From contig JBAZSB010000001.1 in NCBI GenBank assembly GCA_041662625.1, positions 471,093 through 535,092 on the forward strand: a DNA stretch of 64,000 nucleotides, read 5' to 3'. A program made the translations under genes and the position numbers. The DNA is from Patescibacteria group bacterium. Its GTDB lineage: Bacteria > Patescibacteriota > Patescibacteriia > Buchananbacterales > UBA6539. The notes below the pieces were generated by a model. It saw only the letters and a list, made by a program, of their open reading frames with translations. It searched no databases and was not told where the DNA came from. Of this stretch, positions 1-37,701 are shown piece after piece. Position 1 is the first letter of the stretch; every line of letters starts with the position of its first letter.

Positions 1-582
1 GGAAGTAATCCTGGGACAATGATAATTTTTAGAATTATACAGATAAAAAGCCGGATAAGGTAAAGAATCCAAATCCTCAATTAATTCTCGCCGTTTATTG
101 ACCACAACCTTATTCTGATTATCTCGATAAGCTAAACCATCAATAGTTTCCAAAGCTTTCCCTGAGACTAATTCAAGCAAAGTAATTTCACCCTCCCCAA
201 AAACTGCAAAATCAAAATTGTGCTTCTCAACCACTTCCGCTGGAAAAATCGAGGAATGAACGCCACCGGCAATAACTTTTATTGAATTATCAAATGATTT
301 AATCCGATTAACTAAATCACTGGCATCTTTTAATAGGCCAGTGGTAAAAGTAATACCAACAAAATTTGGTTGGAACCTCTTTAAGGATAGATCCAAATCC
401 TTCAAAGGTTCTTGAGAAATACTTAAATCCAAAATCTGAGTTGGATAACCGTCATCTAATAAGGCTGCCGCTAAAGCGGCTAAAGAGAGATAAGGAATAT
501 GAGGGATTGCTACACTAATCTTTGATTCCTTAAAAATTTTAATGGCGGTACTAGGACAAATTAATAGAACTCGTGCTTTCAT
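1..582 (-). CDS. B12-binding-domain radical SAM protein, N-terminal part; the gene continues beyond the window start
   Basis: Manual minus-strand translation from the ATG at ~582 gives MKARVLLICPSTAIKIFKESKISVAIPHIPYLSLAALAA...IKVIAGGVHSSIFPAEV. This matches the cobalamin-binding N-domain of class B radical SAM enzymes. No stop codon occurs before position 1. Confidence 0.5.
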   Translation of the reverse strand, partial: MKARVLLICPSTAIKIFKESKISVAIPHIPYLSLAALAAALLDDGYPTQILDLSISQEPLKDLDLSLKRFQPNFVGITFTTGLLKDASDLVNRIKSFDNSIKVIAGGVHSSIFPAEVVEKHNFDFAVFGEGEITLLELVSGKALETIDGLAYRDNQNKVVVNKRRELIEDLDSLPYPAFYLYNSKNYHCPRITS

Positions 583-684
583 TATTCAAATTATTAGCTT
601 GATTATTAATCAATAATACCTTATCATTATTATATAAAATTTGTTTTTGGTCAAGGCTGATTTAAAATTTTTTATCATTAATTT

Positions 685-1803
685 ATGGCTCAACCAAGCA
701 AAATTTTATATCTTGTTACCCAATCAGAATGGGGCGGCGCCCAGCGCTATATTTTTGATTTAGCAACGCATCTTGCCAGTGACTATAAAGTCGCTGTTGC
801 CGCTGGTGGTAATGATGAGTTATTTGCCAAATTAGACGAAAAAAATGTTGAAAATTACAAATTAAAAAATTTAGTCCGCCAGATTAATTTGACAAAAGAC
901 ATCCAAGCTTACTTTGAAATTAAAAAATTAATAAAAAAAATTAAACCGGATATTTTACACCTCAATAGTAGTAAAGCCGGAGTTATTGGCGCCATTGCTG
1001 GCCGACATGCCAATGTAAAAAAAATAATCTATACCGTTCATGGCTTTGTTTTCAATGAACCGATGGCCGGTTGGCAAAAACAAATTTATATTTGGGCAGA
1101 AAAATTCTCTGCTAAATATAAAGATAAATTAATTTGCGTTTCGGAATATGACCGACAGGTGGGAATTAAAAATAAAATTACTTCCGCAGATAAATTAATT
1201 ACTATCAATAATGGTATTGAACCAATAAGTTTTTTGAATAAAGCAACTGCCAGACAACAACTAAACTTACCGCCAGATAAAATAATTGTCGGAACTATTG
1301 CTAATTTCTATTTAACTAAAGGTTTAGCTTACTTGATTACGGCGGCCAAAGAAATTATAAAAATTATGCCCGACGTTATTTTCCGACTAATCGGCTTTGG
1401 GCGGCTAGAAAACCAACTCAAAACTGAAATTAAAAAGTTAAACTTAGAAAATAAAATTTATTTGGGAAAAGTTGAAAACGCCAAAGAATATCTGCTAGCT
1501 TTTGATCTCTTTGTTTTACCTTCAGTCAAGGAAGGCTTTTCTTATACGATTTTAGAAGCCATGCAAGCCGGCCTACCGATTGTGGCTACTTTGGTTGGTG
1601 GACTACCAGAAATGATTTCTGACAGCAATAATGGCTTATTAGTTCCGCCAGCTGATCCTAATGCATTGGCCCAAGCAATAATTAAACTTTTAGAAAATAA
1701 AGACTTGGCCACTCAATTAGGCAACCAAGCGAAAATCGACGTTAATCAAAAGTTTAGTTTGGCTAAAATGATTTCTGAAACAGCAAAAGTTTATCAAAGC
1801 TAA
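685..1803 (+). CDS. GT-B glycosyltransferase, family 4 (GT1/GT4-like)
   Basis: 372-aa ORF. N-terminal YLVTQSEWGGAQRYIFDLA and C-terminal EGFSYTILEAMQAGLPIVAT are typical GT4 motifs (E-x7-E region). Confidence 0.8.
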   Translation: MAQPSKILYLVTQSEWGGAQRYIFDLATHLASDYKVAVAAGGNDELFAKLDEKNVENYKLKNLVRQINLTKDIQAYFEIKKLIKKIKPDILHLNSSKAGVIGAIAGRHANVKKIIYTVHGFVFNEPMAGWQKQIYIWAEKFSAKYKDKLICVSEYDRQVGIKNKITSADKLITINNGIEPISFLNKATARQQLNLPPDKIIVGTIANFYLTKGLAYLITAAKEIIKIMPDVIFRLIGFGRLENQLKTEIKKLNLENKIYLGKVENAKEYLLAFDLFVLPSVKEGFSYTILEAMQAGLPIVATLVGGLPEMISDSNNGLLVPPADPNALAQAIIKLLENKDLATQLGNQAKIDVNQKFSLAKMISETAKVYQS

Positions 1804-1804
1804 A

Positions 1805-3463
1805 TTATTGCCAGTGATAAACGGCAAAGACGTTGCGGCCATCAGGCCGTTTTATTGTTTCTGGTTTTATATCTTTTAGCTGCTCGGCTAATGCTGCTGC
1901 ACCAGTAGTTCTTTCCTCAGCAGGTTTTTGTAACATGCTGGAATCAATAATCTTAAAAAAGTAGAAATCACCAACTCCCTGTTCAGTCCAAAATTTTTGA
2001 TTTTCTTTTAGGTAATCGTCAGCTGTTATGATTGGCCAACCTTGATAAACCATCCGGCGATGGAAAAGCCAAAGGGTGGCTAAATCATACATATTGCCAT
2101 CGTAAATCAGCAAAATAGGGGCTGGTTTTAACTTTTCCTTTTCCGCCCTCACTAAAGACTTGGCTTTAATATCTTCTAGAAATGGATAGCTGGCGGTGAA
2201 AGTGACAGCGGGTTTTTTATTATTTAACAGTTGGATTAAATATGTGTCTAATTGGTTATAACCATAACTATAACTTTCCTTTTTTAATTGAGAATAAGTG
2301 ATATTTTCCCAACCTAATGGATGGTAAACAAGTAAAGTATTAATTGTAAAAAATAACTCAAAAATCGCTAAAATTAGCAAGAAAATAACAACAATTAATT
2401 TCTTCTGCTGGGCGACAAACCAAGCGACTAATAAAACAATGAAGGGAACAACCAAACTTAAAAAACGGGGTAACGGTCCAATCAATAAAAATAAGAATAG
2501 ATAACTAAAAATAGTTAAAAGCAAAAGACCCAGTTTTTGGTCATGATGCTTCTTAAGATAATACAAAGCAAAAAATACACTGACAACTGTAAACAAAAAC
2601 ATCGGCCCCAAAATTCCAAAAAACAAATTGGGTATTAGATCAAGCAGGCGGCTGGAAAAACTGCCGATTTGCATTTTGCCGGGCAAATACTGCCATTCCC
2701 CTACCGTTTGACCGAAAAGATAGGAAAATTGCAGGTCAAAATGATTAGTCGCTTGATACAATTTAATATTATAGATTAGCACCGGACTAAAAATCAAAAC
2801 TGCTAAAACCAAACCCAGCCAAAAACCTTTTTTCTTCAGCTGATCTCGATTGGTAAAAAACGAGTAAATTAAAAAAATCGGAAAAATAATAAAGGCCGTA
2901 TATTTTGTCAGCATTGCTAAACCCAAACTAATCCCCCACTGCCAGTGCTGCCTATCAGTTAAATTTTTAAAAAATAAATAAAATGTTAATAAACTGAAAA
3001 AAATTACTAATGATTCTTGTAAACCAATCCGGCTGACCCAGCTATGGTTAACTGAAACGGCTAAAAGTAGGGCCGCGAATAAACCAACTTCTTTGCCAAA
3101 AAGCTTGCGGCCAATTAAATAAATTAAAAAAACCGACCCCACTCCAGCTAAGACAAAAGGCAAGCGCAAAACCAATAAACTTTGACCGAATAGACTAAAA
3201 AATAAATGCTGAATCAGAAAAACCAAAGGCGGATGATCATGGAAAGATAATTTAACCCAAAAAGGCAGGTTATCAGAAAACCACTCATAAGGAGTGGTCT
3301 GATAGGGTGAGGCAAAAAAATCAAGGTAGCCGACTGAACGAAAAGCAATTAAAGCTTCATCGGTAATTACATCAGCACTAGTCAGATGATAAAACCTTAA
3401 AAACAAAGCCAGAATAATAATTCCTAAAATAAGCCAATGCTCTTTTTTCATAATAAGTTTCAA
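1805..3463 (-). CDS. GT-C fold membrane glycosyltransferase (ArnT / PMT-like, GT39/83 family)
   Basis: 552-aa polytopic membrane protein. N-terminal HWLILGIIILALFLRFYHL..DE motif loop is typical of dolichyl/undecaprenyl-phosphate-sugar dependent GT-C enzymes. It is a paralog of 4216..5970. Confidence 0.65.
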   Translation of the reverse strand: MKLIMKKEHWLILGIIILALFLRFYHLTSADVITDEALIAFRSVGYLDFFASPYQTTPYEWFSDNLPFWVKLSFHDHPPLVFLIQHLFFSLFGQSLLVLRLPFVLAGVGSVFLIYLIGRKLFGKEVGLFAALLLAVSVNHSWVSRIGLQESLVIFFSLLTFYLFFKNLTDRQHWQWGISLGLAMLTKYTAFIIFPIFLIYSFFTNRDQLKKKGFWLGLVLAVLIFSPVLIYNIKLYQATNHFDLQFSYLFGQTVGEWQYLPGKMQIGSFSSRLLDLIPNLFFGILGPMFLFTVVSVFFALYYLKKHHDQKLGLLLLTIFSYLFLFLLIGPLPRFLSLVVPFIVLLVAWFVAQQKKLIVVIFLLILAIFELFFTINTLLVYHPLGWENITYSQLKKESYSYGYNQLDTYLIQLLNNKKPAVTFTASYPFLEDIKAKSLVRAEKEKLKPAPILLIYDGNMYDLATLWLFHRRMVYQGWPIITADDYLKENQKFWTEQGVGDFYFFKIIDSSMLQKPAEERTTGAAALAEQLKDIKPETIKRPDGRNVFAVYHWQ

Positions 3464-3530
3464 CTCTAATCAGCAAAATGTTCTCCCAATGTAAAGTTTG
3501 GGATTACAGATTTTATTTGACTAACCAAAA

Positions 3531-4208
3531 TTAACGGATTAATTTTTGGATTTCCTGTTTAACTATTTCGTCATCCGGATAAATTTCTAAGTGTTGACGA
3601 TAATAGTCAATAGCCTCTTCTGTGCGACCCTGACTTTGATAAAAATTTGCCAAGAGTGCCATTAAATCGCTTCTCGGATTATTTTTAATGCCTTCCAATA
3701 ATATTTCTTCGGCTTTTTTGGGGTCCTTGAGATTATCCAGGTAAAAAGAAAAGAAATTCCGATAGAACATGGCATTCTTTTCCTCACCCATTGAATTTTC
3801 AATTGCTTTACGTATTACTGGCTCAACTTTATCATATTCTTTGGTAAAATTAATGTATAAATCCGCTAAATTATTAAAGGAAATGCTGTTACTCGGCCGA
3901 TATTCACCGGCTTTAAACCAAGCAGCTTCGGCTCCTTTGTAATCACCCAGGTGTTTTTTAATCATTCCTAATTCCAGCCAACCATCCAATTGATCAGGGT
4001 TTTCATTAAGTGATGAGACAGCTTTATCAAATCGCTCTTGATATTCTTTTTTTTGCCAATCAGCCAAATTTTGATCAACCACTTTGAATTCAAATAAATT
4101 ATTTTCTTCTACCGGCACTCCACTCTTCGGCCAATAATAATAGGCTAAAAAGCCAACTGCTCCCAGCAAAATAACAAGGGCGATAAGAGATTGAATTTTT
4201 TTGTTCAT
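3531..4208 (-). CDS. TPR-repeat protein with N-terminal membrane anchor
   Basis: 225 aa with an N-terminal TM helix followed by TPR-like repeats (AEAAWFKAGEY..., EEAIDYYRQHLEIYPDD). It lies between the two GT-C paralogs. Confidence 0.6.
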   Translation of the reverse strand: MNKKIQSLIALVILLGAVGFLAYYYWPKSGVPVEENNLFEFKVVDQNLADWQKKEYQERFDKAVSSLNENPDQLDGWLELGMIKKHLGDYKGAEAAWFKAGEYRPSNSISFNNLADLYINFTKEYDKVEPVIRKAIENSMGEEKNAMFYRNFFSFYLDNLKDPKKAEEILLEGIKNNPRSDLMALLANFYQSQGRTEEAIDYYRQHLEIYPDDEIVKQEIQKLIR

Positions 4209-4215
4209 AGGTTTT

Positions 4216-5970
4216 TTAATTATTTAATTTTAATTTATAAACTTTAAAAGAAAGTTCATTGTTAATATTATAGATATCATGGACCTCAACAGCTATTGGT
4301 TCAAAGGCTTGCGCAACCTGGGCCGCAGCAAGCTGATTTATTTTTTGTTCATTATCGGTTACCAAAAATTTATTAAGTCCCCAAATATAATAGACATCTT
4401 TTACTTTGGCTTGCCCCAAAAAGTCTAACCACTGGTCAAAGGGGACAAATCGTCCTAGCTCAGCCGCCGAAATAAAAGTTACTTTATAATAAATTGCCCA
4501 GCGGCGGAAATACCAAAGGGAAGCAAACCAATTAAGCGTTGGATCATAGATAAAAAAATCTTTGCCAGCCAAATCTTTGGTTGTATCAACCATTAAATCA
4601 CCAGATTTATTAATAGTAATCATTTTGTCCTGATTAAAATTGTGAATTTGTGACAAATAGTTTTCTAACTGATTAAAACCATGGTTTTCAAAACGGCTAT
4701 TTGAGTAATGCTTTACTGGCTGACCGACGGGCTTTAAAAAAATATTGGTATTCAAATTATAAAGTAACTCAATAATAATTATAGAAGTTAGAACCAAAAA
4801 ATAAACCGCCATTTTTATTTTTTTACCAAGACGTTTTAACAAATGTGGATCTTGATATATCTGAATAACTCCCCAAGCCAAAATAATAGCCAAAAATGGA
4901 CTAATTATTGATAAGTAGCGGTCGCCCGCCCCAATGAACATGAACTGAACAATTATAAAAAATAAAGCCAATAAAACCAAAAAATTTTTATCGTTTTTAA
5001 AATTTAAAAAAGTAAAAAATATAAAATAGAAAAAGCAAGCTAAAAGGGCTAAACAGACTGGCAAAGAAGCTGACTGATAAATTACTGAAAAAATATTGAT
5101 TAATTCATTAAAATGATTCTGAGTTAAATTATTTTGGGCAAATATCGGCCAATCATTGGAAATATCCTGCCGAAATAACTGAGAAAACTGCAGATCAAAA
5201 TGTTGCCTCGTCTGGTAAAGTTCAATATTATAAAACACAACAGGGGAAATAACCAAAAAAGCAATAACCATACCAGCAATTAAATACCTACTGATAAATT
5301 GTTTTCTTTCTTTAAACAGAAGATAAAAGAAAACAACAGGAATTATAAAAAGAGTAACATACTTAGTCAAAAGGCAAAGACCCAGACTTAATCCGAAAAA
5401 AATAAAATAAAAATTATTTTTTAAACTCAACAAAAATAAAAGTAAGGTCAGAATTATAAAAAATATAGAAATGCCTTCCAAATAACCAATCCGGCTGATC
5501 CAGCTAAAATAGGAAAAAACCGCCAAAAATAAACTGGCAAGTAATGCCGTCTTTTCCCCATAAAGTTGTTTAACCAAAAAATAAAGCAAGATAACTGAGC
5601 CAACTCCAGCCAAAGCAAAAGGTAATTTGGCGGTAAAATTAGAGATGCCAAAAACTTTAAAAAACAAATGTTGAATCATAAAAACTAAAGGCGGCGCATC
5701 ATGAAAAGACAATTTTGACCACCAAGGGATATTACTAAACCAAACAATTGGGGTAGTTTGGGTATTAACAGAATCAACAAAATCAAAATAACCAATTGCT
5801 CGAAAGGAGTAAATGGCATCATCAGCTTGAATATCAGCCCGGTTAAGACGGAAAAAAATCAAAAAAGAAGCTAAAACAACAATTAAAAATAGCCACAACC
5901 AAGGCTTTTTTAAAAAACTTTTATGCTCCATAGATAATCTAATTTTATCAATAAATTTGATTTTTTTCAA
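4216..5970 (-). CDS. GT-C fold membrane glycosyltransferase (ArnT / PMT-like), paralog of 1805..3463
   Basis: 584 aa. It shares motifs with the upstream paralog: FSNIPWWSKLSFHDAPPLVFMIQHLFF vs FSDNLPFWVKLSFHDHPPLVFLIQHLFF, and YNIELYQTRQHFDLQF vs YNIKLYQATNHFDLQF. Confidence 0.65.
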   Translation of the reverse strand: MKKIKFIDKIRLSMEHKSFLKKPWLWLFLIVVLASFLIFFRLNRADIQADDAIYSFRAIGYFDFVDSVNTQTTPIVWFSNIPWWSKLSFHDAPPLVFMIQHLFFKVFGISNFTAKLPFALAGVGSVILLYFLVKQLYGEKTALLASLFLAVFSYFSWISRIGYLEGISIFFIILTLLLFLLSLKNNFYFIFFGLSLGLCLLTKYVTLFIIPVVFFYLLFKERKQFISRYLIAGMVIAFLVISPVVFYNIELYQTRQHFDLQFSQLFRQDISNDWPIFAQNNLTQNHFNELINIFSVIYQSASLPVCLALLACFFYFIFFTFLNFKNDKNFLVLLALFFIIVQFMFIGAGDRYLSIISPFLAIILAWGVIQIYQDPHLLKRLGKKIKMAVYFLVLTSIIIIELLYNLNTNIFLKPVGQPVKHYSNSRFENHGFNQLENYLSQIHNFNQDKMITINKSGDLMVDTTKDLAGKDFFIYDPTLNWFASLWYFRRWAIYYKVTFISAAELGRFVPFDQWLDFLGQAKVKDVYYIWGLNKFLVTDNEQKINQLAAAQVAQAFEPIAVEVHDIYNINNELSFKVYKLKLNN

Positions 5971-6011
5971 GGTTTACCCAATCAGAAACAAAATTTCTAA
6001 TGGAGTAAAAC

Positions 6012-6060
6012 AAAGAGCCCCTCCCCCCGCCGTGAGGCGGGAAAAGAGGAGCTCTTCTTT
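6012..6060 (-). terminator. GC-rich nested hairpin (CCCGCC-GTGA-GGCGGG inside AGAGC/GCTCT) followed by a T-run on the minus strand. Likely a rho-independent terminator of the large surface-protein gene.
   Basis: Seen directly in an otherwise AT-rich intergenic region, directly 3' of the 6101..9841 minus-strand gene. Confidence 0.5.
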
Positions 6061-6100
6061 ATCGTTTCAACTTTTACTTACAAGAGGAAAACTGGCTTAA

Positions 6101-9100
6101 TTATTTACTCCAAGTAGTACCACTAGTCGTGGCTGATATATAAGATGGAGGAGAACCAGCATCCGTTACTAAGTAGCCATTATACCACTGCTCGGCTGTT
6201 GAAGTACAAGTACTTGAGGAATTCTTTGTACCCGACATCCTCCACCAATCAGTCCAAACGAAATTATAGAGTTCACCATAATTATAAGCGCTTGGATCTT
6301 TCAAGTAGAGAGCGAGATTACTGCCACCCGTAGTGATAGCAGACGAATCAGCCATGAATTTAGTGTTGACTGTACCACCAGTTGGAGTAGTCGGATGACT
6401 ACAGAAACTTGAAGCACATTCGATATCACCCTTCACCTGATAAGTCTGGGAACTACCAGCAGCAATGATTGATTCGCTGGGCAGTAAATTGGTCAGAGCT
6501 GTGCCTACTGCGAAAGCTGGAATTGCACCGTCAGTGGTCAAGAAAAACTTCTGAACAATAGTACCCTTACTTCCACCGGCGTCAATGAATGTTGAAGAAG
6601 CTGTCCCGACTTTTGTTCCACCAGCATACAAGTAGACGTTGGTAACAGTAGCAGTAGTAGTAGTCATTAAGAAACTAACACTCATTAAACCAATATCACC
6701 ACCGCTATCAGCCGCCACGGTAAACTGACTTAAGACTTTGGTATTAGTCCCAGCCGGAATTGTTCCACCGGTTTCAGTTAAGGTAACCTTAGGAATACTT
6801 CTGACTAAGGTCAAGCTTTTACCACTAGCAGTACTTAAGCTAGCTGTAACTTCTTGACCGGACTCAGCACCTTTAGCTACGATGTCACCAGCACCGCTGA
6901 TTGACAGATAGAAACCTTGATAAGAAGATGCAAAACCAGCAGTATCACCATTAAGCTCATAATTTACTACCGGCGTATCAACCTTAAAGGTTAAGGTAAC
7001 TGTAGTGTCTTTTGGTATTACTAATGGATTACTGGTGAGATCCAATAAAGCAGTTTTACTGGCCGCATCAGTGGCAGTTGGCACTACTGAGCCAACTAAA
7101 GTACTACCATTATACAGGTATAATGTATCGATCTGATCAAAGCCACCGCTGTTGACCTGTTCGGCGGTAACATACATCTTTTCAATGTTAATGTTTTCCT
7201 TTGTCCCCTGAATCAATAATACTGCAGCACTAACACCAGCAGTATTACCTGGAATAAAGCCGGCTTTGGGTGTAGCGGATGATTGGGTTAAAGTCAAAGT
7301 CCCAGTAGTAGTAAATGTTTGGGCTTGACCATCGCTTTGGCTAACAGTAATTATTGCATCTAAAGCGCTACTATTACCTTTGGCTGTGATATGGTCAGAA
7401 CCAGTCTTATCCGGTAAACCAACGGTAATTGAACCGGAAGTCGCTGAAGTGGCAATATCACCTTTTATCGTTAAGGTTTTACTTGTTCCCTTGGTAATGA
7501 CTAAGGGTGTAGACAAGGTAAAGGTGGAGGTAGCGGAATTACCAGCTGCAGTCTTGCCGGAAGTATCGGAATCCGGATCATTGGTCACGGAAAGTTCCGT
7601 ACTACCATTCCACAAGCTCCAGTTAGAAACTTGTGACGGATTAGCAGTTGAAGAATGGACTGCTACTTTAACGGCAGTAACCTTAATATCTTCACCAGAA
7701 GATTCGGCGCCGATAATAATATTAGCAAAGGTATGACCTTTGGTTCCGCCTACAACTGTTGCTGCACCCGGAGTCGGTGAAACTGAAATGGCTAAAGCTG
7801 CACTTTGAACAGTCATCGTTGCCGAAGTCTGCTCAGAATATGGGGTCGGATAAATAGTTAAACCGGTATTTTCACCCTTCGCTACGATTGTGGCAGCTGT
7901 GGCTGAAACGGCAGGTTTAATGTGAGCAATAATCGTATCACCAGTGCCAAAATCTGAATCTAAGTCGGCTTTAACCGTGTAAATATGGACCCCGACAGGA
8001 ACAGTAACCGTGTCAGTAGAAGTAGCTACTAATATAGCTGTTTTAGTAGTACCACCGTCGTCATAATACTTTAATGTTGGATCATCTGGACCAGCAACAA
8101 TTACACCATTTTCGTCATAAACACTCACATTTGTTAAGTCAACTGTGGTGTCAGTGCCTAAATTGCCAGTAGAAGTAGTTATTTTGAAAGCAATCGGCAA
8201 AGACGTAATTTCAACCGCTTCGCCTTTGGCTTCAAACTCAAACTTGCCTAAAACTATCTGGGTATCATCTTCTGGAATATTGGCATTACTTAAGGTGGAT
8301 GAACCAATTCTTAGAGAACCGGTACTAACGGTGGTAAGAGGCGCCGTCCAGAAAGGTTCGGCATCAACAGTACAACCGCTGCCGCAAGCCACTTTGACTT
8401 CTGAACCATAAAGCTGGCCTTTAGCCCGAATATCAGATTCATCATTGACGTCAAAGCGGATGGTTCGAGCAGAACCACTAGCAATATCTAACTGCAGGTC
8501 AAACTGGACTGATCTACCTTTAGCAATTAAGACAGGACTGGCTGATAAATCAAAAGTTACCACACCATCCACAGGTTCGGCCACGGTCTTAACAACAGCA
8601 TCATCAACCAATAAATCTAAATTGGCGACGTCGCTGTCACTGGCGGTTCCCCCTTGCTTGAAGGAAATCTGGGTGACTTTAAAGTCTTCCACTGAACCAG
8701 CAGTTAATTTAACACCGGAAGCGATGTAATTGGTTACGCCAACCTTTTGGGTTGAAGCGCTTGGATTATTACTACCATTGTAAGTCGTCAAAGTACCAAT
8801 GGTCACGGTACCGTTAAGGGTCTGATAATTACCCACTATTGGCAAAGTGCCAATTACGGCGGCAGTCCCGCTCAAAGTAATGCTGTATAAATCCAATGAT
8901 GGGATTTCACCAGCATAGGAAGCAGTCGCCCCCATATTACCAGCGAGGTAAATGGTTTTGGTCGTACCCGCGGTAACGGTAATATCCTTGTTGAATACCG
9001 CCTGATGGGTGGAATTTAAGGTTTTGGTTGTACCAATTCTAACATCAGTAGCGGCATCAATTAAGGCAATTGAACTAAATGGCGTATCAGAGGCCACAGT

Positions 9101-9841
9101 TCCGCCTCGTCTAACAACTAATTGATCAATAACAATGTCACCATCAGCTGAAGCAGTTAGGTTAACCTTGGTAAATTTGTTGTTGATTGAATTAGCAACA
9201 ACAATGCCAGAGGCTGCAGTATCAGAGGCTAAAGCAACAGTTAAACTTGTGCCGGTAGAAACAGCACCGCCACTCGTTAAGTTCTTATCATCATTAATCG
9301 AGGTAGCTGCTGAAGTTTCTGCCGCTTTGTCAAAATCAGAAGCAGCATCAATGTCAGCACCAACGGTGTAGTTGACAAAGAAAGCATCAGAGATATCATC
9401 AACTGATGTTGTTGCCCAATTAGCACCGTATAAAGTTTCGGCAATAGCGCCGGTTGTTACCCAGTGTAAAGTTCCATTAGCTCCAACCGCATAGACTTTA
9501 GGATCAGTATTGATTTTCACTAATTTGACTCCTGGTCTGTAGGTAACATTGCCACCAATAGCATAAGAGCTCATCTCGGTTGAAGAGACGATCTGGACAC
9601 CAGAAAAGTCTGGATACCAAGTTTTATATGTTTTCTCATTTGGGAAAACATATCTCTTGCTATCAGCACCAAGGTAATAAACAGCTTTACAAGGGTCATT
9701 GACCTCAGCACCAGCAGCACACTGGAGCTTAATCAAATCACCGGAAACAGCTGCACCTACTGAGAAGGGAATAGCGAGTATTCCTACTGACCAAACTATA
9801 GTCGCAACGGCAACACTGTAGGTTAATACTTTTTTAATCAT
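6101..9841 (-). CDS. Very large secreted / cell-surface protein (1246 aa), Ser/Thr/Gly-rich, repetitive; likely S-layer- or adhesin-like
   Basis: N-terminal signal peptide (MIKKVLTYSVAVATIVWSVGILAIPFSVGA). Extreme Thr/Ser/Gly/Val composition with many beta-strand-like repeats. The internal opposite-strand ORFs are artefacts. Confidence 0.6.
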   Translation of the reverse strand: MIKKVLTYSVAVATIVWSVGILAIPFSVGAAVSGDLIKLQCAAGAEVNDPCKAVYYLGADSKRYVFPNEKTYKTWYPDFSGVQIVSSTEMSSYAIGGNVTYRPGVKLVKINTDPKVYAVGANGTLHWVTTGAIAETLYGANWATTSVDDISDAFFVNYTVGADIDAASDFDKAAETSAATSINDDKNLTSGGAVSTGTSLTVALASDTAASGIVVANSINNKFTKVNLTASADGDIVIDQLVVRRGGTVASDTPFSSIALIDAATDVRIGTTKTLNSTHQAVFNKDITVTAGTTKTIYLAGNMGATASYAGEIPSLDLYSITLSGTAAVIGTLPIVGNYQTLNGTVTIGTLTTYNGSNNPSASTQKVGVTNYIASGVKLTAGSVEDFKVTQISFKQGGTASDSDVANLDLLVDDAVVKTVAEPVDGVVTFDLSASPVLIAKGRSVQFDLQLDIASGSARTIRFDVNDESDIRAKGQLYGSEVKVACGSGCTVDAEPFWTAPLTTVSTGSLRIGSSTLSNANIPEDDTQIVLGKFEFEAKGEAVEITSLPIAFKITTSTGNLGTDTTVDLTNVSVYDENGVIVAGPDDPTLKYYDDGGTTKTAILVATSTDTVTVPVGVHIYTVKADLDSDFGTGDTIIAHIKPAVSATAATIVAKGENTGLTIYPTPYSEQTSATMTVQSAALAISVSPTPGAATVVGGTKGHTFANIIIGAESSGEDIKVTAVKVAVHSSTANPSQVSNWSLWNGSTELSVTNDPDSDTSGKTAAGNSATSTFTLSTPLVITKGTSKTLTIKGDIATSATSGSITVGLPDKTGSDHITAKGNSSALDAIITVSQSDGQAQTFTTTGTLTLTQSSATPKAGFIPGNTAGVSAAVLLIQGTKENINIEKMYVTAEQVNSGGFDQIDTLYLYNGSTLVGSVVPTATDAASKTALLDLTSNPLVIPKDTTVTLTFKVDTPVVNYELNGDTAGFASSYQGFYLSISGAGDIVAKGAESGQEVTASLSTASGKSLTLVRSIPKVTLTETGGTIPAGTNTKVLSQFTVAADSGGDIGLMSVSFLMTTTTATVTNVYLYAGGTKVGTASSTFIDAGGSKGTIVQKFFLTTDGAIPAFAVGTALTNLLPSESIIAAGSSQTYQVKGDIECASSFCSHPTTPTGGTVNTKFMADSSAITTGGSNLALYLKDPSAYNYGELYNFVWTDWWRMSGTKNSSSTCTSTAEQWYNGYLVTDAGSPPSYISATTSGTTWSK

Positions 9842-10115
9842 TTTTAATTTTTCCTTTCTTAGTTCATTAATCTCTTTAGTTAGGTTTGATCTTGTTACGC
9901 CTAGGCTAAATTAACAACATCAGCTGAGTCCCGATTTCACATCGGGACATCTAAATCCAGCTGTCCTTGCTCAATTCAAGGTTCCTGCTTTTACAGGATC
10001 GACCTTTGCCTTAAATAAGTAAGGGGATTTAGACCCTAATTGCTCCAAAAAGTCTAATGAACTTTTATTTTACCCAACTTTATATATTAAGCTTGTTGGG
10101 TGCAAAATTACTAAA

Positions 10116-11051
10116 TTATTTAACGCTACTATTAGTACTTGGCTCTATTTCGGCAGCATCTTGTTCTTCTGGTGTCAAAATCTGAATTATTGAAGCTTCT
10201 AATGCATCCCCTTCTTCAGTACTATCTGTCTTAGTTTGATCTGGCTCAACTGGGGTTTCAGCACCATCAATCACACCATTATCTTGATTCGGCTCTTGTT
10301 CTTCAGTCGCCTGATTAGCTTCGGCGACTAACTGCTGAGCGGACAAGCTAGTCTCTTGGGCTGATTGAACGGCTTCAGCTACCATTTGCTCCACCCCCAG
10401 CTTTTCCGCGTCTGATAACCCTTCAACAGTTTTATCAACACTCTTTGCCATCTCTTCAGTCTTGGAACTGACCGTTAGGGCCATCCTTAAAGTTGTTTCT
10501 TTATCTTCAGTAGTGGCGATGTTTTGGTCGGCTTCCTTGATTTTATTCAAATGATCATTGACTGCCACCACATTATTTTTAAATTCTTTAACTACGGCTT
10601 CAATGTTTTTCTTTTTTTGCTGCGGATCAACATTGACTTGGGCGATAATCTTATCAAGTTCAGCCACTCGCTTTTGAGCAAATTCAATTTTTAACTCGAC
10701 TTTGTTTTCATCTCCCGTCACTAAAGCCATGTGAGTCTTTTCTAAGGTTAATTTCAGTGGGTATAAAGTCTCACCGGGCAAACTATAAAAAGCAGCATTA
10801 ATCGTTAAGCTGCTTCCTAAAAATACGCCTAAAACCAAAAGCATAATAAATGCCGGCTCAAACACTAAACGCTGACTTAAAGTTTGAGCTAAAACAGTAA
10901 AGTATCCCTTTAGTCCCACGCCTACTGATTGATATTGGTTTTTTGAATTAATTTGCTGTAATAAAATATCCCGACTCAAAGTTAACCACTCTGATCGGGG
11001 CTGAATCTCTTTTTTTAAACCTTTGATTTCTTGAATGATACTATCTTTCAT
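10116..11051 (-). CDS. Putative anti-sigma factor-like membrane protein (single TM, coiled-coil, acidic C-terminal tail)
   Basis: 311 aa. It overlaps the upstream ECF sigma gene by 11 nt. There is one TM helix (FIMLLVLGVFLGSSLTI) and a coiled-coil periplasmic region. Confidence 0.4.
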   Translation of the reverse strand: MKDSIIQEIKGLKKEIQPRSEWLTLSRDILLQQINSKNQYQSVGVGLKGYFTVLAQTLSQRLVFEPAFIMLLVLGVFLGSSLTINAAFYSLPGETLYPLKLTLEKTHMALVTGDENKVELKIEFAQKRVAELDKIIAQVNVDPQQKKKNIEAVVKEFKNNVVAVNDHLNKIKEADQNIATTEDKETTLRMALTVSSKTEEMAKSVDKTVEGLSDAEKLGVEQMVAEAVQSAQETSLSAQQLVAEANQATEEQEPNQDNGVIDGAETPVEPDQTKTDSTEEGDALEASIIQILTPEEQDAAEIEPSTNSSVK

Positions 11052-11604
11052 TTTTATTTAATAGTTCACGACAAACCTTGATGGCTCGATGAAGTAAAAC
11101 TCTCACCGAACCTTTTGACTTATCTAAGACATTAGCAATCTCACTGATTGAAAGTTCTTCAATGAAACGGAGAATAACGATTTCTCGATACTCATCTTTC
11201 ATCTGTCTGAGAACTTTCTCAATATTTTTCATCTCAAATTCAGTGTCAATCTGAAACAATAAACTTTGCTGGCGATAGTCTTCAACATTCAACAACGATT
11301 CTTGATCTTGAGTAAAATCCTTTCGGGCGCTCTGACGATAAAAATCAATAACTAAATTCCGGGCAGCTTTATAAAGTAAAGCCTTTAAATTTTCAATCTT
11401 CTCGTCTGTCTCGGTAACATACTGCCAAATTTTCAAAAATACTTCCGAAGTCAAGTCTTCGGCATCTTGACGCGTCGCCACCTTAAAATAAATAAATCTG
11501 TAGATGGGCGTTACATACAGATCATAAATTTGGGCAAAAGCCTCGGGATCTTTCTTTTTCAACCTTAATAATAGCAGTTTTTCCTGAAGTTTAGAAGTGG
11601 GCAT
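11041..11604 (-). CDS. RNA polymerase sigma-70 family ECF sigma factor
   Basis: 187 aa. Region 2 (YRFIYFKVATRQDAEDLTSEVFLKIWQ) and region 4 HTH (LSISEIANVLDKSKGSVRVLLHRA) are recognisable. Confidence 0.8.
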   Translation of the reverse strand: MPTSKLQEKLLLLRLKKKDPEAFAQIYDLYVTPIYRFIYFKVATRQDAEDLTSEVFLKIWQYVTETDEKIENLKALLYKAARNLVIDFYRQSARKDFTQDQESLLNVEDYRQQSLLFQIDTEFEMKNIEKVLRQMKDEYREIVILRFIEELSISEIANVLDKSKGSVRVLLHRAIKVCRELLNKNER

Positions 11605-11848
11605 TAAGTATACATTAATTAAGACGTAATAAATAAATAAATGTTACAGCAATAAACTATACTATAACTATTTTCTTGAAGTAAGTCAATGATTATGACC
11701 TAAAACCTGAAGCTTGGACCTTATGGCTCAAAGCTTGTTTTGTAGCTTGAGGTTACAGGTTTCAAGATATTTGACTAATTTTTCTTAATTTATTACTATA
11801 TAAATGGACTAATTGTCCAGACTAATCTAGACAAATAATGCTATTTCT

Positions 11849-12136
11849 ATGCCCAATGTAATTCGGGTCTCGGTCTCAGAAGCCAGCCGGCTTTTTGGGG
11901 TCGAACCAAAAACTGTTAGACGAGCGATCAAGGACCAAAAACTCAAATACATTGTTGTCCAAGGCCGATATAAGATTAATTTTAGCAGCCTCTTGGAATG
12001 GTCACAAGGCAAAATGACCACTAAAAATAAACTGGCTGATCGGGGTATTGGCCAATATGTGGATAAGTGGAAAATTAAAAACAAGCTCTACTCCCCCAAT
12101 CCAGAGCTGGTTGGAGAGAATAAACCCAAAAGATAA
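11849..12136 (+). CDS. Small helix-turn-helix DNA-binding protein
   Basis: 95 aa. SEASRLFGVEPKTVRRAIKDQKL is an HTH-like segment. Its own SD-like site and the terminator follow. Confidence 0.45.
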   Translation: MPNVIRVSVSEASRLFGVEPKTVRRAIKDQKLKYIVVQGRYKINFSSLLEWSQGKMTTKNKLADRGIGQYVDKWKIKNKLYSPNPELVGENKPKR

Positions 12137-12202: not shown

Positions 12203-13366
12203 TTAGTCAGGCAAAATTACTAGAGTTACTGTTTTAGTTATTGTCTTACCGGCTCTCAATATCTCTAAATCAATCTCATCACCCCCCTGGTACTGTTGAA
12301 TCAATTCCGTTAAGCTACTATTTTTATCAATTTGCTGACCATCAACACTGACAACAATATCGGCTTCTTGGAGGCCGGCATCTGAGGCTGGTGTCCCCTT
12401 CTTTGGACTTTGATAAACTAATGCTCCGCGATTTAATCCCTGAGTTAAATTTTCATTTAAACCAAACACCCAGGCTAAATCAATATAACTAACACCGAGA
12501 AATGGTCGCTTAACTATACTGCTACGCAAAACATCTAAAACGATTGGCCGAAACTGATTGATCGGTACAGCGGTTACCAATTTATCGTCTTGACTGATCT
12601 CTTTAATTATACCAATCACCTCTCCCCCAAGATTAATTAAAGGGCTGCCTAAATAGGTATCATCTAAAACACCGTTTAGCGAAATTGATCGGTTATATTC
12701 TTCCGAAGAAATAACAAAGTTATCGCCTGAAGTAATATTAATGTAATCGGTGTTTTTAATATTAACCACCATCGCCTCACCTAAATTATTCAAAGTAATA
12801 GCCAACTGACCCAAAGTGGCTTCATCAGAGTCCCCCAAGACAACCACCGGTAGATTACTAGCTGAAATTTTTAAAAAAACTACACTGGTAGTGGCATCAA
12901 TTATTAAATTATCAATCGTAAAAGTTTTTCCAGCATAAACCACGACCAGCTGGTCAGGCTTATAATTTTTGAAAATTTCACCAAAACTAACTAGCCAGCC
13001 ATCACTGGTTAAAATAAAACCGTTAGTTTTTAAATCTTGGGGTAAATAAATTTGATTTAAAGCATTGTTACTGGAAGATTTTTTAGAATAAATACCAACC
13101 AATCCCGGAGTAACTTTCTCAATTGATTTATTAACCTCAAAATCTTGCTGAATACCTAAAAATCTTGTAACTCGTCTTAGTTCGGGAATAACTGAAGAAG
13201 CACCGGCATTCGTATTCAAAATATCTACCGTATAACTATCGCGCCAAGGATCAATATAAACATCAGCCACAATCTGACCAACGACACCGGCGGCAAAACC
13301 AAATACCATAGATAAAATTACTACCTGGGAAATAAATTGCTCTTTTTGCTTTTTAAATAATTTCAT
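12203..13366 (-). CDS. HtrA/DegP-like trypsin-fold protease with C-terminal PDZ domain; the catalytic Ser motif is atypical
   Basis: 387 aa with an N-terminal TM helix and a protease core (GEVIGII). The canonical GNSGGPL is replaced by LGSPLINLGG. The PDZ domain (PFLGVSYIDL...GALV) is present. Confidence 0.55.
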   Translation of the reverse strand: MKLFKKQKEQFISQVVILSMVFGFAAGVVGQIVADVYIDPWRDSYTVDILNTNAGASSVIPELRRVTRFLGIQQDFEVNKSIEKVTPGLVGIYSKKSSSNNALNQIYLPQDLKTNGFILTSDGWLVSFGEIFKNYKPDQLVVVYAGKTFTIDNLIIDATTSVVFLKISASNLPVVVLGDSDEATLGQLAITLNNLGEAMVVNIKNTDYINITSGDNFVISSEEYNRSISLNGVLDDTYLGSPLINLGGEVIGIIKEISQDDKLVTAVPINQFRPIVLDVLRSSIVKRPFLGVSYIDLAWVFGLNENLTQGLNRGALVYQSPKKGTPASDAGLQEADIVVSVDGQQIDKNSSLTELIQQYQGGDEIDLEILRAGKTITKTVTLVILPD

Positions 13367-13370
13367 ATTT

Positions 13371-14135
13371 TTAAAACCATTTAGCCGTAGCTAAAATAAT
13401 AATTAAAGCTAAAACACTAATTAATAAATAACGTTTGACTACTTTACTTTCCTTAATCTCCAAAAGCCAATTACGGGCTAAGCCGCCTACAAGGTAATAA
13501 CTAATAGTGACAATTAAACCACTAACATAAACGCTGGTTGGTAAGAATATGGCCGCCCAAAAAATTTCAGAAATTAAAATGGTAACCACTAAAATATAAG
13601 GCAAAGCGGCCGCAAAAGTCTTGCCACTGGTCCAAGCTAATTGGTAATTTAGCAAAATATTAACTACCATGAAAATAATTAATAAAATTACCCAAGAAAA
13701 ACCTAAAAAAATAGCCAGGCTATAAAAACCACTAGCGATTAAAAAAATGGTGATTAAACCCAAATGAATGATGATATTTTCTAGAGAATAAGCCTGATAT
13801 TTAATCCGAAGATGAAATTTCAAAAATACTACTTCAAAAAAAGCCCAGAATAAGATTACCACACAGACCAAAAAAGCCTGCTTGAAAAATTGACCTTCTA
13901 AAAAAATAAAAAAAAGTAAAGTCCCGGCAAAAAGTAACAGCGGCGTCAATAAAATCTGCCAAAAATTTGGGCTAAAAAGTTTCCGGCCAACTAGCTGCCA
14001 AACACTTAAAATAATTAAACCTAAAGCCAACGGCATTAACCAATAGATCTGTTTTGGCATCACTAATAGCTGCTCAAATAGAAAAAAAATGACTAGGGCT
14101 ATTAAGACGGGAATAATTCGATTAACTGCTTTCAT
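13371..14135 (-). CDS. Polytopic membrane protein, unknown function
   Basis: 254 aa with ~7 predicted TM helices. Confidence 0.4.
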   Translation of the reverse strand: MKAVNRIIPVLIALVIFFLFEQLLVMPKQIYWLMPLALGLIILSVWQLVGRKLFSPNFWQILLTPLLLFAGTLLFFIFLEGQFFKQAFLVCVVILFWAFFEVVFLKFHLRIKYQAYSLENIIIHLGLITIFLIASGFYSLAIFLGFSWVILLIIFMVVNILLNYQLAWTSGKTFAAALPYILVVTILISEIFWAAIFLPTSVYVSGLIVTISYYLVGGLARNWLLEIKESKVVKRYLLISVLALIIILATAKWF

Positions 14136-14138
14136 TTT

Positions 14139-15050
14139 TTACTTTGACTTTAATTCTTTAAGCTTCTTCAACTGTTCAACGTCAAGCCCAATACTTTTCA
14201 GCTTTTCGATCGTGTCCGGTGCCAAATTATCAAAATCATAATTAGATATCTTCTCTTTTTCTACATTGTCTAGCTGATCAATGACTTTAATGAGGCTAGT
14301 GACGCTATCTCTAATAAGTCCAATATCAATGGCAAGTCGCAAAATTAATTTACCATCTTTCAATTCAAGCGCCGGCGTGCGGGATTTATCGGAATTGACT
14401 TGATTCAAATCGATATTATAAAGAGTGGTGTGTTTATCTCCGGATTTCTCCAAGTATTTATGAACCGACCAATTAACCAGACTGGGTGGCAAATTTAAAT
14501 TACCAACTTTAAATTGAGTGATCTGATAAGAATAGGGGGCCCCTTCTGGTTTGGATATTTTAACCTTCAAAGTGAGGTTTACTTTAATTGGTCTAAGCAT
14601 TAAACCAAAAAATTCAATTTCACCCTCATTAATCACGATTTGGGTATTTTGAGCAAACTTAGGTTTTTCTTGTTTAGCTAAATTTTGGCGGATAATGAAA
14701 GTCAATTCTTCTTCCGTTAGCTCCATGGTGGTCATTTTTGTCGTCTGGTCATATTGATAACTGGCTGGTCTTCGAATAAAATCTTCTGGATTGTCGATTA
14801 CTATTAACCGGCTTGGCGAAGGCACTCGGTAAAAAATTTGAGAAAGAACTGGAATTTCAATAATGCCGGCTTTGGCTATTAAAGCAACTAAAATAATCAA
14901 AATGAAAATAAACAAAAATCCGGCCAGACGTAAGCAACTGGTTTTAACTGATCGTTTTTTAGCCCTTCTTTCTTTTTTCGGCGGCTTTGGCTTGGGCTTA
15001 AGATCTTGTGAGGGCAATAAATTTTCTTCTTTGAGATCAATCCGAGCCAT
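14139..15050 (-). CDS. Membrane-anchored protein with basic N-terminus, unknown function
   Basis: 303 aa. Lys/Pro-rich N-terminus, then a TM helix and an extracytoplasmic domain. Confidence 0.4.
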   Translation of the reverse strand: MARIDLKEENLLPSQDLKPKPKPPKKERRAKKRSVKTSCLRLAGFLFIFILIILVALIAKAGIIEIPVLSQIFYRVPSPSRLIVIDNPEDFIRRPASYQYDQTTKMTTMELTEEELTFIIRQNLAKQEKPKFAQNTQIVINEGEIEFFGLMLRPIKVNLTLKVKISKPEGAPYSYQITQFKVGNLNLPPSLVNWSVHKYLEKSGDKHTTLYNIDLNQVNSDKSRTPALELKDGKLILRLAIDIGLIRDSVTSLIKVIDQLDNVEKEKISNYDFDNLAPDTIEKLKSIGLDVEQLKKLKELKSK

Positions 15051-15062
15051 AAAAATGATTAA

Positions 15063-15458
15063 TTATTCAAGCCACGGGTATTCGGTTTTTAAAGCCTGAA
15101 TCTTTGCTTGTCCGTCTTCTATCTTATTTTGGTCTGAAGCCAGTTGTCCTTGCTCAAGTGATTCAAAGGCAACAACCAAACTGAAATGAAGATCCAGGTA
15201 TTGGGCCGGCGCTTTTAAAGCCAAAATTTTATCCTTAATACCTAAAATTTTATTACTTTCCCAATAGGGTTTCAAAATTTCAACCAAATTCGATTCATAA
15301 TCGGCCACTAAATCCTTTTGTTCCTCTGGTTTTGGTTGATTTTGCATATTTTGGTTGCTTATAGGCTCTGACTTGTTAGAACAGCCAACCATAACAAAAC
15401 CAAAAAAAGCTAAAATTACAAAAATAAAAACTTTTCTAGTGCCAAAAATTTTTCTCAT
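15063..15458 (-). CDS. Lipoprotein (lipobox LAFFGFVMVGC)
   Basis: 131 aa with a signal peptide and lipobox Cys. Confidence 0.45.
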   Translation of the reverse strand: MRKIFGTRKVFIFVILAFFGFVMVGCSNKSEPISNQNMQNQPKPEEQKDLVADYESNLVEILKPYWESNKILGIKDKILALKAPAQYLDLHFSLVVAFESLEQGQLASDQNKIEDGQAKIQALKTEYPWLE

Positions 15459-15470
15459 TAGCTTATTAAT

Positions 15471-15806
15471 TTAATAGATAAATGAGATTAAAATAAATGA
15501 TAAAATTCCGACGATGGCCAAAGTGACCAGAGTAACTATGGCCGTCATTAAAGCCTCGGCAAAACGCTTCTGAAAAGCTAAATAAACCGGATAACCAAGA
15601 ACTAGAATTCCCGAAACCGCAGCGCTAAAAACGAATAGGAGCAAAACTAGTAATGGACCAGCTATCCCTGGCGGATCATGGGGCATTGCATTACCAATAA
15701 TAGTAATCAAGGAAGCAATCAATAAAATATAAATTGCTTCCGCAATCCCGCCCAAAAAACCAAATCTAAGAACTTCTGATTCATTAATTTTTTGTTTTTT
15801 GAACAT
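15471..15806 (-). CDS. Small membrane protein
   Basis: 111 aa with 3 TM helices. Confidence 0.4.
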   Translation of the reverse strand: MFKKQKINESEVLRFGFLGGIAEAIYILLIASLITIIGNAMPHDPPGIAGPLLVLLLFVFSAAVSGILVLGYPVYLAFQKRFAEALMTAIVTLVTLAIVGILSFILISFIY

Positions 15807-15841
15807 AGATTTAGGTATTAGTAATTAGGTATTAGGGATTA

Positions 15842-16180
15842 CTAAAACGCCATTTCGCCCCGGCTCATTTCCATCTCTACCCAATTATCACCGGCTGGAT
15901 CATAACGATAAGCTTTAAATTTATGAACTTTTTCCGTATCGGAATAAACATACTCAACTCTCGTATCACTACCAATCCGCCGTGAACCAATAGTTTTTTT
16001 ATCCAAAACTAAAGGTTTGGTCGTTCGCTCCAGCTTCATTCGCCCTAGTGGTCCTTTAAACTCAATAATTTCAGCTGTGCCCGGACCAATCTCTTCGGGT
16101 AAATCTTCGGTTCGATGATCAATAACTTCAAAGTTGTCTTTAACTTGAGCGATAGTATTTTGCCATTTTTCATCAGTCAT
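15842..16180 (-). CDS. Hypothetical protein
   Basis: 112-aa ORF with consistent codon usage. Confidence 0.35.
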   Translation of the reverse strand: MTDEKWQNTIAQVKDNFEVIDHRTEDLPEEIGPGTAEIIEFKGPLGRMKLERTTKPLVLDKKTIGSRRIGSDTRVEYVYSDTEKVHKFKAYRYDPAGDNWVEMEMSRGEMAF

Positions 16181-16274
16181 AGTTTAGGAAGTAGTGAGTA
16201 GACCAGTAGATTAGTAGGACGGTAGGTAAAAATCCTTATTCCCCTACCAATCTACCGATCTACAACCCTACCAA

Positions 16275-36665: not shown

Positions 36666-36736
36666 CAGGGGTGGAAGGAATCGAACCCTCGTATCCGGTT
36701 TTGGAGACCGACGTTCTACCACTGAACTACACCCCC
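36666..36736 (-). tRNA. tRNA-Trp (anticodon CCA)
   Basis: Hand-folded: acceptor GGGGGTG/CACCCCT, D-stem GTTC/GAAC, anticodon stem TCGGT/ACCGG with loop CTCCAAA, T-arm GAGGG-TTCGATT-CCTTC. Confidence 0.85.
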
Positions 36737-37164: not shown

Positions 37165-37167
37165 TGG

Positions 37168-37249: not shown

Positions 37250-37269
37250 ATATATACAACATTTGACAG

Positions 37270-37626: not shown

Positions 37627-37701
37627 AGCGCAAAAAATTAGTAATAAATGCGCTATGTTGAAAGCTAAATGCTAATTGTCAACTGTTAATTGTTTATCTG
37701 G

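Follow-up and report, generated by a model that had tools for sequence, protein, structure and literature searches.

The 64-kb stretch of DNA analyzed here (the window; positions 471,093 to 535,092 of contig JBAZSB010000001.1) comes from a patescibacterium, and near its start lies the gene for a 1246-residue S-layer-type protein (SLP; 6101..9841, minus strand) in the company of genes for a small TPR protein and two polytopic membrane glycosyltransferases of the GT-C type. We suggest that an ABY1-type (Buchananbacteria-like) patescibacterium has its S-layer locus here, together with an attached glycosylation module, a reading to which we give a probability of roughly 47%. The analysis covered open reading frame (ORF) coordinates in the window, Pfam and NCBIfam scans of the window proteins and a comparison with the loci of relatives. 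The G+C content of the window is low (about 35–44%). All ORFs named by the original prediction, which had described a neighborhood for the glycosylation of a surface protein, were found where it had placed them, and with hundreds to thousands of homologs each they are, judged by homology, real genes rather than chance reading frames.

The 1246-residue protein, which NCBI names 'hypothetical protein WC675_02330 [Patescibacteria group bacterium]', is very probably an S-layer protein, as the original prediction had supposed in calling it a major surface or S-layer-like protein. It carries a Sec-type signal peptide, recognized by inspection (residues 1–30; 9841–9752), and its one hydrophobic segment spans residues 10–28. 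It is acidic (isoelectric point 4.6) and contains 14.3% Thr and 10.5% Ser (24.8% together), 10.5% Ala and 9.5% Gly. Thus, the signal peptide and the Thr/Ser richness noted before are correct, whereas the repetitive sequence also noted is not, as the DNA has no tandem repeats beyond a 22-nt hexamer run. No Pfam or NCBIfam model matched the protein, and a sequence search against PDB returned nothing. An AlphaFold2 model based on an 89-sequence alignment (mean predicted local distance difference test score, pLDDT, 88.3) places after the signal peptide an alpha/beta anchor-like domain of 160 residues (hereafter the N-domain; residues 31–190; 9751–9272), then six all-beta Ig-like domains (residues ~196–1165; 9256–6347) and a small C-terminal domain (6346–6104), all on the minus strand. 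A search for Ig-like domains had been proposed earlier, and these six are its outcome; they are at most 32% identical to one another. Foldseek searches with the whole model detected generic Ig-domain arrays only, with TM-scores of at most 0.25.

More than 865 homologs of SLP were found, and those listed are ~1190–1280 residues long unless truncated. The closest named relatives belong to Candidatus Buchananbacteria, and all named homologs are from Patescibacteria (Buchananbacteria, Falkowbacteria and Kuenenbacteria), to which a genome scan added Uhrbacteria, Magasanikbacteria and Campbellbacteria. The broader alignment was too diverse for finding loci, and a closer set was used instead. The Campbellbacteria homolog aligns with SLP residues 213–1225 and has itself more than 1400 relatives of 1155–1245 residues in Paceibacteria, many of which carry an N-terminal PG_binding_1 domain and are named 'peptidoglycan-binding protein'. 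Since PG_binding_1 stands in place of the N-domain among these homologs, the lattice body appears to be conserved while the wall-anchoring end is exchanged.

An S-layer family of this kind was already predicted before our work. In the supplement of bioRxiv 10.1101/2024.05.28.596244, a family from Patescibacteria is presented that has six Ig-like assembly domains and, by prediction, forms a p6 'hexagonal spiral pyramid' lattice; the members listed have 1131–1274 residues (A0A1G2EN61, A0A1F5NRV7, A0A0G1WWP5 and GMX59286.1), with homologs in many classes. The preprint reports confident hexamer and trimer lattice models and high expression, and family members are listed among the five most expressed secreted proteins in PMC10936435. 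The window SLP shares with this family the phylum, the length (1246 versus 1131–1274 residues), the signal peptide, a putative anchoring end and the six Ig-like domains, and its Paceibacteria homologs carry the peptidoglycan-binding domain of the highly expressed proteins in PMC10936435. It differs in its N-terminal domain, which no Pfam model describes. The six-Ig-domain spiral architecture was also noted, in the same preprint, for the S-layer glycoprotein csg of Haloferax volcanii. Glycosylation genes, a TPR partner, a sigma/DUF5667 module and a leader RNA are mentioned in neither source. What is new here is the locus architecture, the alternation of PMT_2 and Wzy_C genes, the anchor-like domain family and the leader RNA.

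A different view of the same protein would be a wall-anchored adhesin or host-attachment fibre built of Ig-like domains, which forms no lattice. The Foldseek matches are adhesins, integrins and cadherins, and Kuroda et al. read homologous proteins with PG-binding domains as host-attachment proteins. However, adhesins usually vary in length and repeat number, whereas the SLP family keeps a constant length and a six-domain plan across classes, and the lattice models and expression level given in the preprint also argue against a simple fibre. We therefore regard an adhesin without a lattice as very improbable and retain the S-layer assignment. The strong terminator behind the gene and the structured leader in front of it, both described below, count in favor of this assignment as well.

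The N-domain (9272–9751) was modeled with a pLDDT of 95. No Pfam model covers it, and Foldseek yielded only weak matches, to EccB repeat domains (E = 0.014). It occurs in 4090 representative proteins of 216–1331 residues and is always terminal, located either just behind a signal peptide or at the very C-terminal end (e.g., in S8 proteases). Thus, it behaves as a modular anchor and is probably a wall-anchoring module, a candidate role suggested by its distribution among protein sequences.

Whether the neighboring genes belong with SLP was addressed by calling and clustering ORFs in 75 genome loci of relatives; sub-counts are given over the 29 ABY1-type loci, or over 26 with at least 5 kb of downstream sequence. 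A near-universal ABY1-type module consists of an HTH_17 gene (in minus orientation relative to the rest), an ECF sigma gene, a DUF5667 gene and the SLP gene, and the TPR gene completes the stable core. Across the loci, a DUF5667 gene directly precedes the SLP gene in 43; sigma genes were found in 39 and HTH genes in 32. The TPR gene directly follows the SLP gene in 20 of the 29 ABY1-type loci. After it comes one of three: PMT_2 GT-C genes, a gene for a ~760-residue protein combining Wzy_C (O-antigen ligase) with TPR repeats, or an S8 protease gene. The first occur in 10 of the 29 loci (the Buchananbacteria-like group plus L015 and L018), and the second, which takes the GT-C slot in other lineages, in 8. 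Further downstream in relatives are genes for GT4 enzymes, a short GT2, DUF2304, another GT2 and a UDP-sugar dehydrogenase. Three tandem Wzy_C-TPR paralogs lie directly 3' of the SLP gene in one locus (L035:4083–10831) and two in another (L017).

The small TPR protein of the window (3531..4208, minus strand; TPR models 1e-9 to 1e-13) has one N-terminal transmembrane segment and is predicted to be membrane-anchored and outward-facing. It is homologous to the product of the gene that follows the SLP gene in Paceibacteria (E = 1e-18 and 1e-26), where the order is FtsK, a ~270-residue protein with a weak DeoR-type HTH, an intergenic region of 640–780 nt, the SLP gene and the small TPR gene. We considered whether the ~270-residue protein might be a DUF5667 homolog and rejected this. 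As a TPR homolog follows the SLP gene in Paceibacteria too, the SLP-TPR pair would be the deepest conserved unit, around which the GT-C genes were inserted. The original prediction had grouped the TPR gene with the GT-C genes into one block; the comparison speaks against this grouping, since the TPR gene accompanies the SLP gene even where no glycosyltransferase genes are nearby. In terms of gene neighborhood, the TPR protein is the partner of SLP and not of the GT-Cs.

The association of glycan genes with the SLP gene is nevertheless strong in ABY1-type loci. The order SLP-GT-C-TPR-GT-C is exact in L003–L006 and L011, with SLP identity down to about 54%, and the orders SLP-GT-C-TPR or SLP-GT-C-GT-C-TPR are seen in L008 and L010, at about 41–42% SLP identity. 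The first 10 kb after the SLP gene contain glycan genes in 25 of the 26 loci, and 16 of these 26 include a polytopic GT-C or Wzy_C gene. With respect to the earlier question of whether the cluster is conserved together with a surface-protein gene, the SLP gene is thus linked to glycan genes in divergent relatives far more often than chance. The retained gene order, the Wzy_C-TPR protein in the same slot and the glycan genes in nearly all loci together suggest that SLP is the acceptor of the GT-Cs and is O-glycosylated, a proposal that we rate at slightly less than even odds. Another conserved polytopic membrane protein, of 640–716 residues, stands at the end of glycan clusters (cluster c30; L024, L025, L031, L036, L047 and L056) and matches nothing in Pfam, NCBIfam or PDB. 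The idea that it is a hidden GT-C was rejected (hhalign probability 0.4%, no PDB match).

Both GT-C proteins of the window are encoded on the minus strand and, as the original prediction had anticipated, fall far above threshold for PMT_2. GT-C #1 (1805..3463) matches PMT_2 with E = 1.4e-31 (110.3 bits, cut-off 26.1) and PMT with 1.4e-8 (35.1 bits, cut-off 22.7); the values for GT-C #2 (4216..5970) are 7.9e-24 (85.1 bits) and 1.6e-10 (41.4 bits). They are indeed paralogs (38% identical over 494 residues, E = 2e-83). Their starts are probably the ATG codons at 5931 (#2) and 3451 (#1) rather than TTG, because the public gene calls have 571 and 548 residues; an exact look-up of GT-C #1 with the TTG start found no match, as the start was mis-set. 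Orthologs in L003–L006 and L011 were detected with E values of 1e-176 to 1e-216 for #1 and 1e-137 to 1e-165 for #2. Hydropathy analysis places about 10–12 transmembrane segments in the N-terminal ~400 residues; the final ~150–180 residues have none and would form a C-terminal soluble domain. In loop 1, D31, D35, R42 and D48 are invariant among 26 family members and E36 is nearly so; GT-C #2 reads DD where the family has DE.

We then asked to which characterized enzymes this family is closest. A profile of the 26 members matched only ArnT (5ezm, E = 2e-5) and yeast Pmt1 (6p25, E = 4e-3), in both cases partially and over the transmembrane core; as single sequences against PDB, GT-C #1 detected nothing and GT-C #2 only ArnT, at 0.043. 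The comparison that had been proposed for separating ArnT-type enzymes from protein glycosyltransferases therefore did not discriminate, as the profile matches both about equally, and on sequence evidence the family is assignable to neither. With regard to ArnT and ArnC (GT83), 5ezm is the best solved-structure match, over loop 1 and the transmembrane core, although weak and partial; no arn-type neighbors were found, and the context is instead an S-layer gene. As the envelope of Patescibacteria is Gram-positive-like and is not known to contain lipid A, an acceptor for ArnT would not be expected.

The likeness to actinobacterial Pmt (GT39, acting with Ppm1) and yeast Pmt1-Pmt2 includes the PMT_2 and PMT matches, an acidic loop-1 motif and a polytopic core with a soluble domain. 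By analogy, the two side-by-side paralogs recall the Pmt1-Pmt2 heterodimer, and the proposed substrate would likewise be Sec-exported and Ser/Thr-rich, with transfer at the outer face as in actinobacterial Pmt. On the other hand, the profile match to Pmt1 (E = 4e-3) covers TM3–7 only, the Pfam scan detected no MIR domain and the window has no donor synthase. Eukaryotic TMTC1-4 are GT-Cs fused to TPR repeats that O-mannosylate the Ig-like domains of cadherins. A PMT_2-type GT-C, outward-facing TPR repeats and a putative substrate made of Ig-like domains are found here as well; however, TPR is a separate gene, conserved with the S-layer gene and not with the GT-C, so that the resemblance can be taken as an analogy only. 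In comparison with the archaeal Agl pathway, the GT2 of relatives is similar to AglJ (2e-35) and GT-C #1 is weakly similar to the Agl23 family (5e-11, below cut-off), but no AglB/STT3 oligosaccharyltransferase was found, the lineage is bacterial and all matches are below the family cut-offs.

The Wzy_C genes of sister lineages point to yet another known system. In the slg clusters of Geobacillus stearothermophilus and Paenibacillus alvei, the Wzy_C-type O-oligosaccharyltransferases WsaB and WsfB transfer glycans en bloc to Gram-positive S-layers. As in slg, the S-layer gene adjoins glycan-biosynthesis genes, and in sister lineages a Wzy_C polytopic protein directly follows the SLP-TPR pair. 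The differences are that the polytopic enzymes of the window are PMT_2 GT-Cs, that the window has no Wzy_C gene and that the Wzy_C domain of relatives is fused to TPR repeats.

Other enzymes that might act with the GT-Cs are a GT4 and a GT2. The former is encoded in the window (685..1803, plus strand, convergent with GT-C #1) and is cytoplasmic (Glycos_transf_1 1e-37, Glyco_transf_4 3e-23; no NCBIfam equivalog reached its cut-off). Its family is present in 23 of the 29 loci, and in many loci an unambiguous ortholog (E = 1e-76 to 1e-163) follows the SLP gene at a distance of a few kb. The short GT2 occurs in 12 of the 29 related loci, in L015 directly beside the GT-C gene, and resembles polyprenyl-phosphate sugar synthases (PpgS 1e-48, AglJ 2e-35). 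A natural fusion of GT2 (PF00535/PF13641) and GT-C was also observed (P0207, 808 residues); it agrees with the idea that a GT2 supplies the polyprenyl-phosphate sugar donor.

These elements could be arranged as follows. SLP would be exported by Sec, tied to the wall by its N-domain and assembled into the predicted hexagonal S-layer, with the TPR protein assisting its export, folding or assembly. A short GT2, such as that known from relatives (the window has none), would charge polyprenyl phosphate with a sugar; after flipping, the two GT-Cs would move the sugar to Ser/Thr residues of SLP at the outward face of the membrane as SLP emerges from Sec. The two GT-Cs may work together as a heterodimer or differ in specificity. 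For sister lineages, we infer that the Wzy_C-TPR enzyme in the same position would do an equivalent job by en-bloc transfer.

It should be noted, however, that several observations weigh against an S-layer locus with its own glycosylation module. It is gene order, and no other line of evidence, that points to SLP as the acceptor. We infer that SLP is a member of the published S-layer family from phylum, length and architecture, and indirectly through the Paceibacteria homologs. In a strict GT39 test the GT-C profile is no closer to PMTs than to ArnT. Members of the GT-C family elsewhere in the candidate phyla radiation (CPR) sit among housekeeping genes, and adjacency to SLP is confined to one clade. 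The five Paceibacteria loci have no sigma or DUF5667 genes and, more to the point, no glycosyltransferase genes near the SLP gene; Paceibacteria SLP homologs without such neighbors contain 25.5% Ser/Thr, compared with 23.3% where glycosyltransferases adjoin. Composition is thus uninformative on glycosylation, Ser/Thr being equally abundant whether or not glycosyltransferases adjoin. The window, which ends 1.8 kb beyond GT-C #1 at an edge where the public contigs stop as well, contains no GT2, flippase, Wzy_C or further glycosyltransferase gene, nor one for an initiating phosphoglycosyltransferase or an ABC exporter. Finally, a strong intrinsic-terminator-like hairpin (6018..6049, minus strand; a 14-bp stem with 9 G-C pairs, then a T-rich tail) lies between the SLP stop codon and GT-C #2 and separates the SLP gene from the GT-C genes. 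Given this terminator, the GT-C-TPR-GT-C genes are probably a transcription unit of their own.

Some of these points would fit GT-Cs that are general envelope glycosyltransferases, acting on type IV pilins, other secreted proteins or lipids, in which case their position next to SLP would reflect the clustering of surface genes. The terminator is in agreement with this, as is the CPR-wide occurrence of the family (about 38–40% identity in Azambacteria, Sungbacteria, Doudnabacteria and Paceibacterota; 'glycosyltransferase family 39 protein' in NCBI), usually away from S-layer genes. In L085, a member of the family has as neighbors a GT2, a DUF2079 protein and an Ig-domain surface protein other than SLP, and in the window a PilT-like ATPase and five small conserved proteins are encoded a few kb upstream. 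But mere clustering does not readily account for an SLP-GT-C-TPR-GT-C order that stays exact down to about 54% SLP identity and partial at about 41–42%, for another polytopic transferase in the same slot in other lineages, or for downstream glycan genes in 25 of 26 loci, which are hard to explain without a functional link. We consider general envelope glycosyltransferases unlikely and a module dedicated to the S-layer locus the better description.

A serious rival, even if we hold it to be rather improbable, is that the glycan genes build or decorate a wall-linked glycopolymer which is the ligand of the N-domain, and that SLP is not an acceptor at all. This would resemble SLH domains bound to pyruvylated secondary cell-wall polymer, or the CWB2 domains of Clostridioides difficile bound to PS-II. 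GT-C superfamily enzymes decorate teichoic acids and rhamnopolysaccharides in Gram-positive bacteria, and mycobacterial PpgS, to which the GT2+DUF2304 pair of relatives is most similar (1e-48), feeds a GT-C that modifies arabinogalactan. Glycan genes adjoin where SLP has the window-type N-domain and are absent where the homolog carries PG_binding_1 and might bind peptidoglycan directly, although the Paceibacteria side of this correlation with anchor type comes from five loci. The N-domain is moreover common to thousands of other secreted proteins, as expected of a module that binds a common polymer. Against a polymer, the GT-C genes interrupt the SLP-TPR pair, whose members otherwise stay together, and this position points to a closer link with the protein; moreover, no LytR-CpsA-Psr ligase was among the 25 most frequent of the 59 Pfam families in the unannotated downstream ORFs. 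We also know of no wall polymer in Patescibacteria. For these reasons, O-glycosylation of SLP remains the use of the glycan genes that we favor.

Expression of SLP may be controlled by its leader. The gene is preceded by a structured 5' leader of 274 nt (9842..10115, minus strand) with a conserved motif and covarying pairs. An invariant AAAGGTCG (10007–10000) occupies an internal loop that is bounded by a closing stem on one side and a hairpin (9998–9983) on the other; a long-range covarying helix pairs 10033–10025 with 9958–9950, and two hairpins (9948–9928 and 9921–9888) and the ribosome-binding site (9856–9850) follow. AAGGTCG was found in 29 of 35 loci, where the flanking stem sequences vary and pairing is kept. 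The stems have a mean of 5.1 and 5.2 bp, compared with 2.0 and 3.0 bp in shuffles (0 of 300 reach the observed values). For eight close relatives, RNAalifold predicted 48 pairs, 27 of them with compensatory changes, and 89% of the alignment cells were paired versus 79% in shuffles (0/500) and 30–50% when the partner was slid. The leader is conserved among loci whose SLPs share only ~25–30% identity, and an Rfam search up to E ≤ 10 returned nothing for it. Five Paceibacteria leaders were inspected; none contains the exact AAAGGTCG motif, and only look-alikes with GTCGA occur in them. In the Paceibacteria loci L080–L082, the 640–780-nt intergenic region upstream of the SLP gene bears such look-alikes without the exact heptamer.

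Upstream of the leader is the regulatory module. The DUF5667 gene (10116..11051, minus strand) encodes a single-pass membrane protein with an extracytoplasmic DUF5667 domain (PF18915, 9e-11; transmembrane segment around residues 58–85) and overlaps by 11 nt the gene for the ECF-type sigma-70 factor (11041..11604, minus strand; Sigma70_r2 and r4_2; TIGR02937 87.5 bits, cut-off 42.9). The DUF5667 protein is a candidate anti-sigma factor; it matches no anti-sigma model, and we found no mention of DUF5667 in the literature. An ECF-type promoter-like motif, TGTAAC-N16-CGTC, precedes the sigma gene (11623..11648, minus strand) and recurs without mismatch in 19 of the 39 upstream regions of orthologs, usually at a distance of 33 nt from the sigma start codon, which implies autoregulation of sigma. 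Upstream of this motif is a sigma-70-type promoter-like site, TTGACT-17-TATAGT (11689–11661, minus strand). The small HTH_17 DNA-binding protein (11849..12136, plus strand; PF12728 on the public gene call) is encoded divergently from the sigma gene. A palindrome, TTGTCTAGATTAGTCTGGACAA, located at 11813–11834, 15 nt 5' of this gene, was also read in orthologous regions, and similar TGTCTAGA..TCTAGACA palindromes are found at the corresponding site of many related loci; the HTH_17 protein probably uses it as its operator.

At the other end, the gene at 1..582 (minus strand, start codon at 582) encodes the N-terminal 194 residues of a probable cobalamin-dependent radical SAM enzyme. The window includes its B12-binding domain only (PF02310, 9e-17; NCBIfam B12-radical-SAM families match weakly), and the radical-SAM core lies outside. 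A role of this enzyme in modifying the transferred sugar had been suggested before, but the gene recurs only in one 87%-identical relative (L078) and in 0 of 75 genome loci. In other Buchananbacteria, this position is taken by genes for an epimerase and a UDP-sugar dehydrogenase. Thus, the radical-SAM gene is probably outside the system.

Several additional features of the window were observed. A block at 12203–17318 (minus strand) is conserved with the S-layer locus in about 10–15 relatives and encodes a PilT-like T2SSE ATPase (16275–17318), an HtrA-type protease (12203–13366) and five small proteins without a strong family match, one of which weakly matches DUF5656. The block may serve pili or the quality control of the envelope. 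Four clustered tRNA genes are located at 36666–37774 (minus strand), and a 2-kb stretch at 52000–54000 has a G+C content of 0.53, compared with about 0.40 around it.

Patescibacteria account for a considerable part of bacterial diversity and have a lifestyle of attachment to other cells, and their envelope is almost uncharacterized. The present analysis offers an inventory of S-layer components for one major class: SLP, a TPR partner shared across classes, a dedicated ECF sigma module, a leader RNA, interchangeable anchors and lineage-specific glycosylation enzymes. The leader RNA and the unmodeled anchor-like domain family are usable annotations in their own right. In its most complete form, in which a PMT-like GT-C pair O-glycosylates SLP in one clade and a Wzy_C-TPR enzyme does so in sister clades, as two swapped routes at one locus, and a previously undescribed AAAGGTCG-loop leader RNA governs SLP expression, the proposal is doubtful. 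If PMT-like O-glycosylation does take place, however, the range of protein O-mannosylation-type chemistry would come to include S-layers and CPR bacteria, and the glycan-bearing surface that is met by hosts, phages and immune systems would be given a name.

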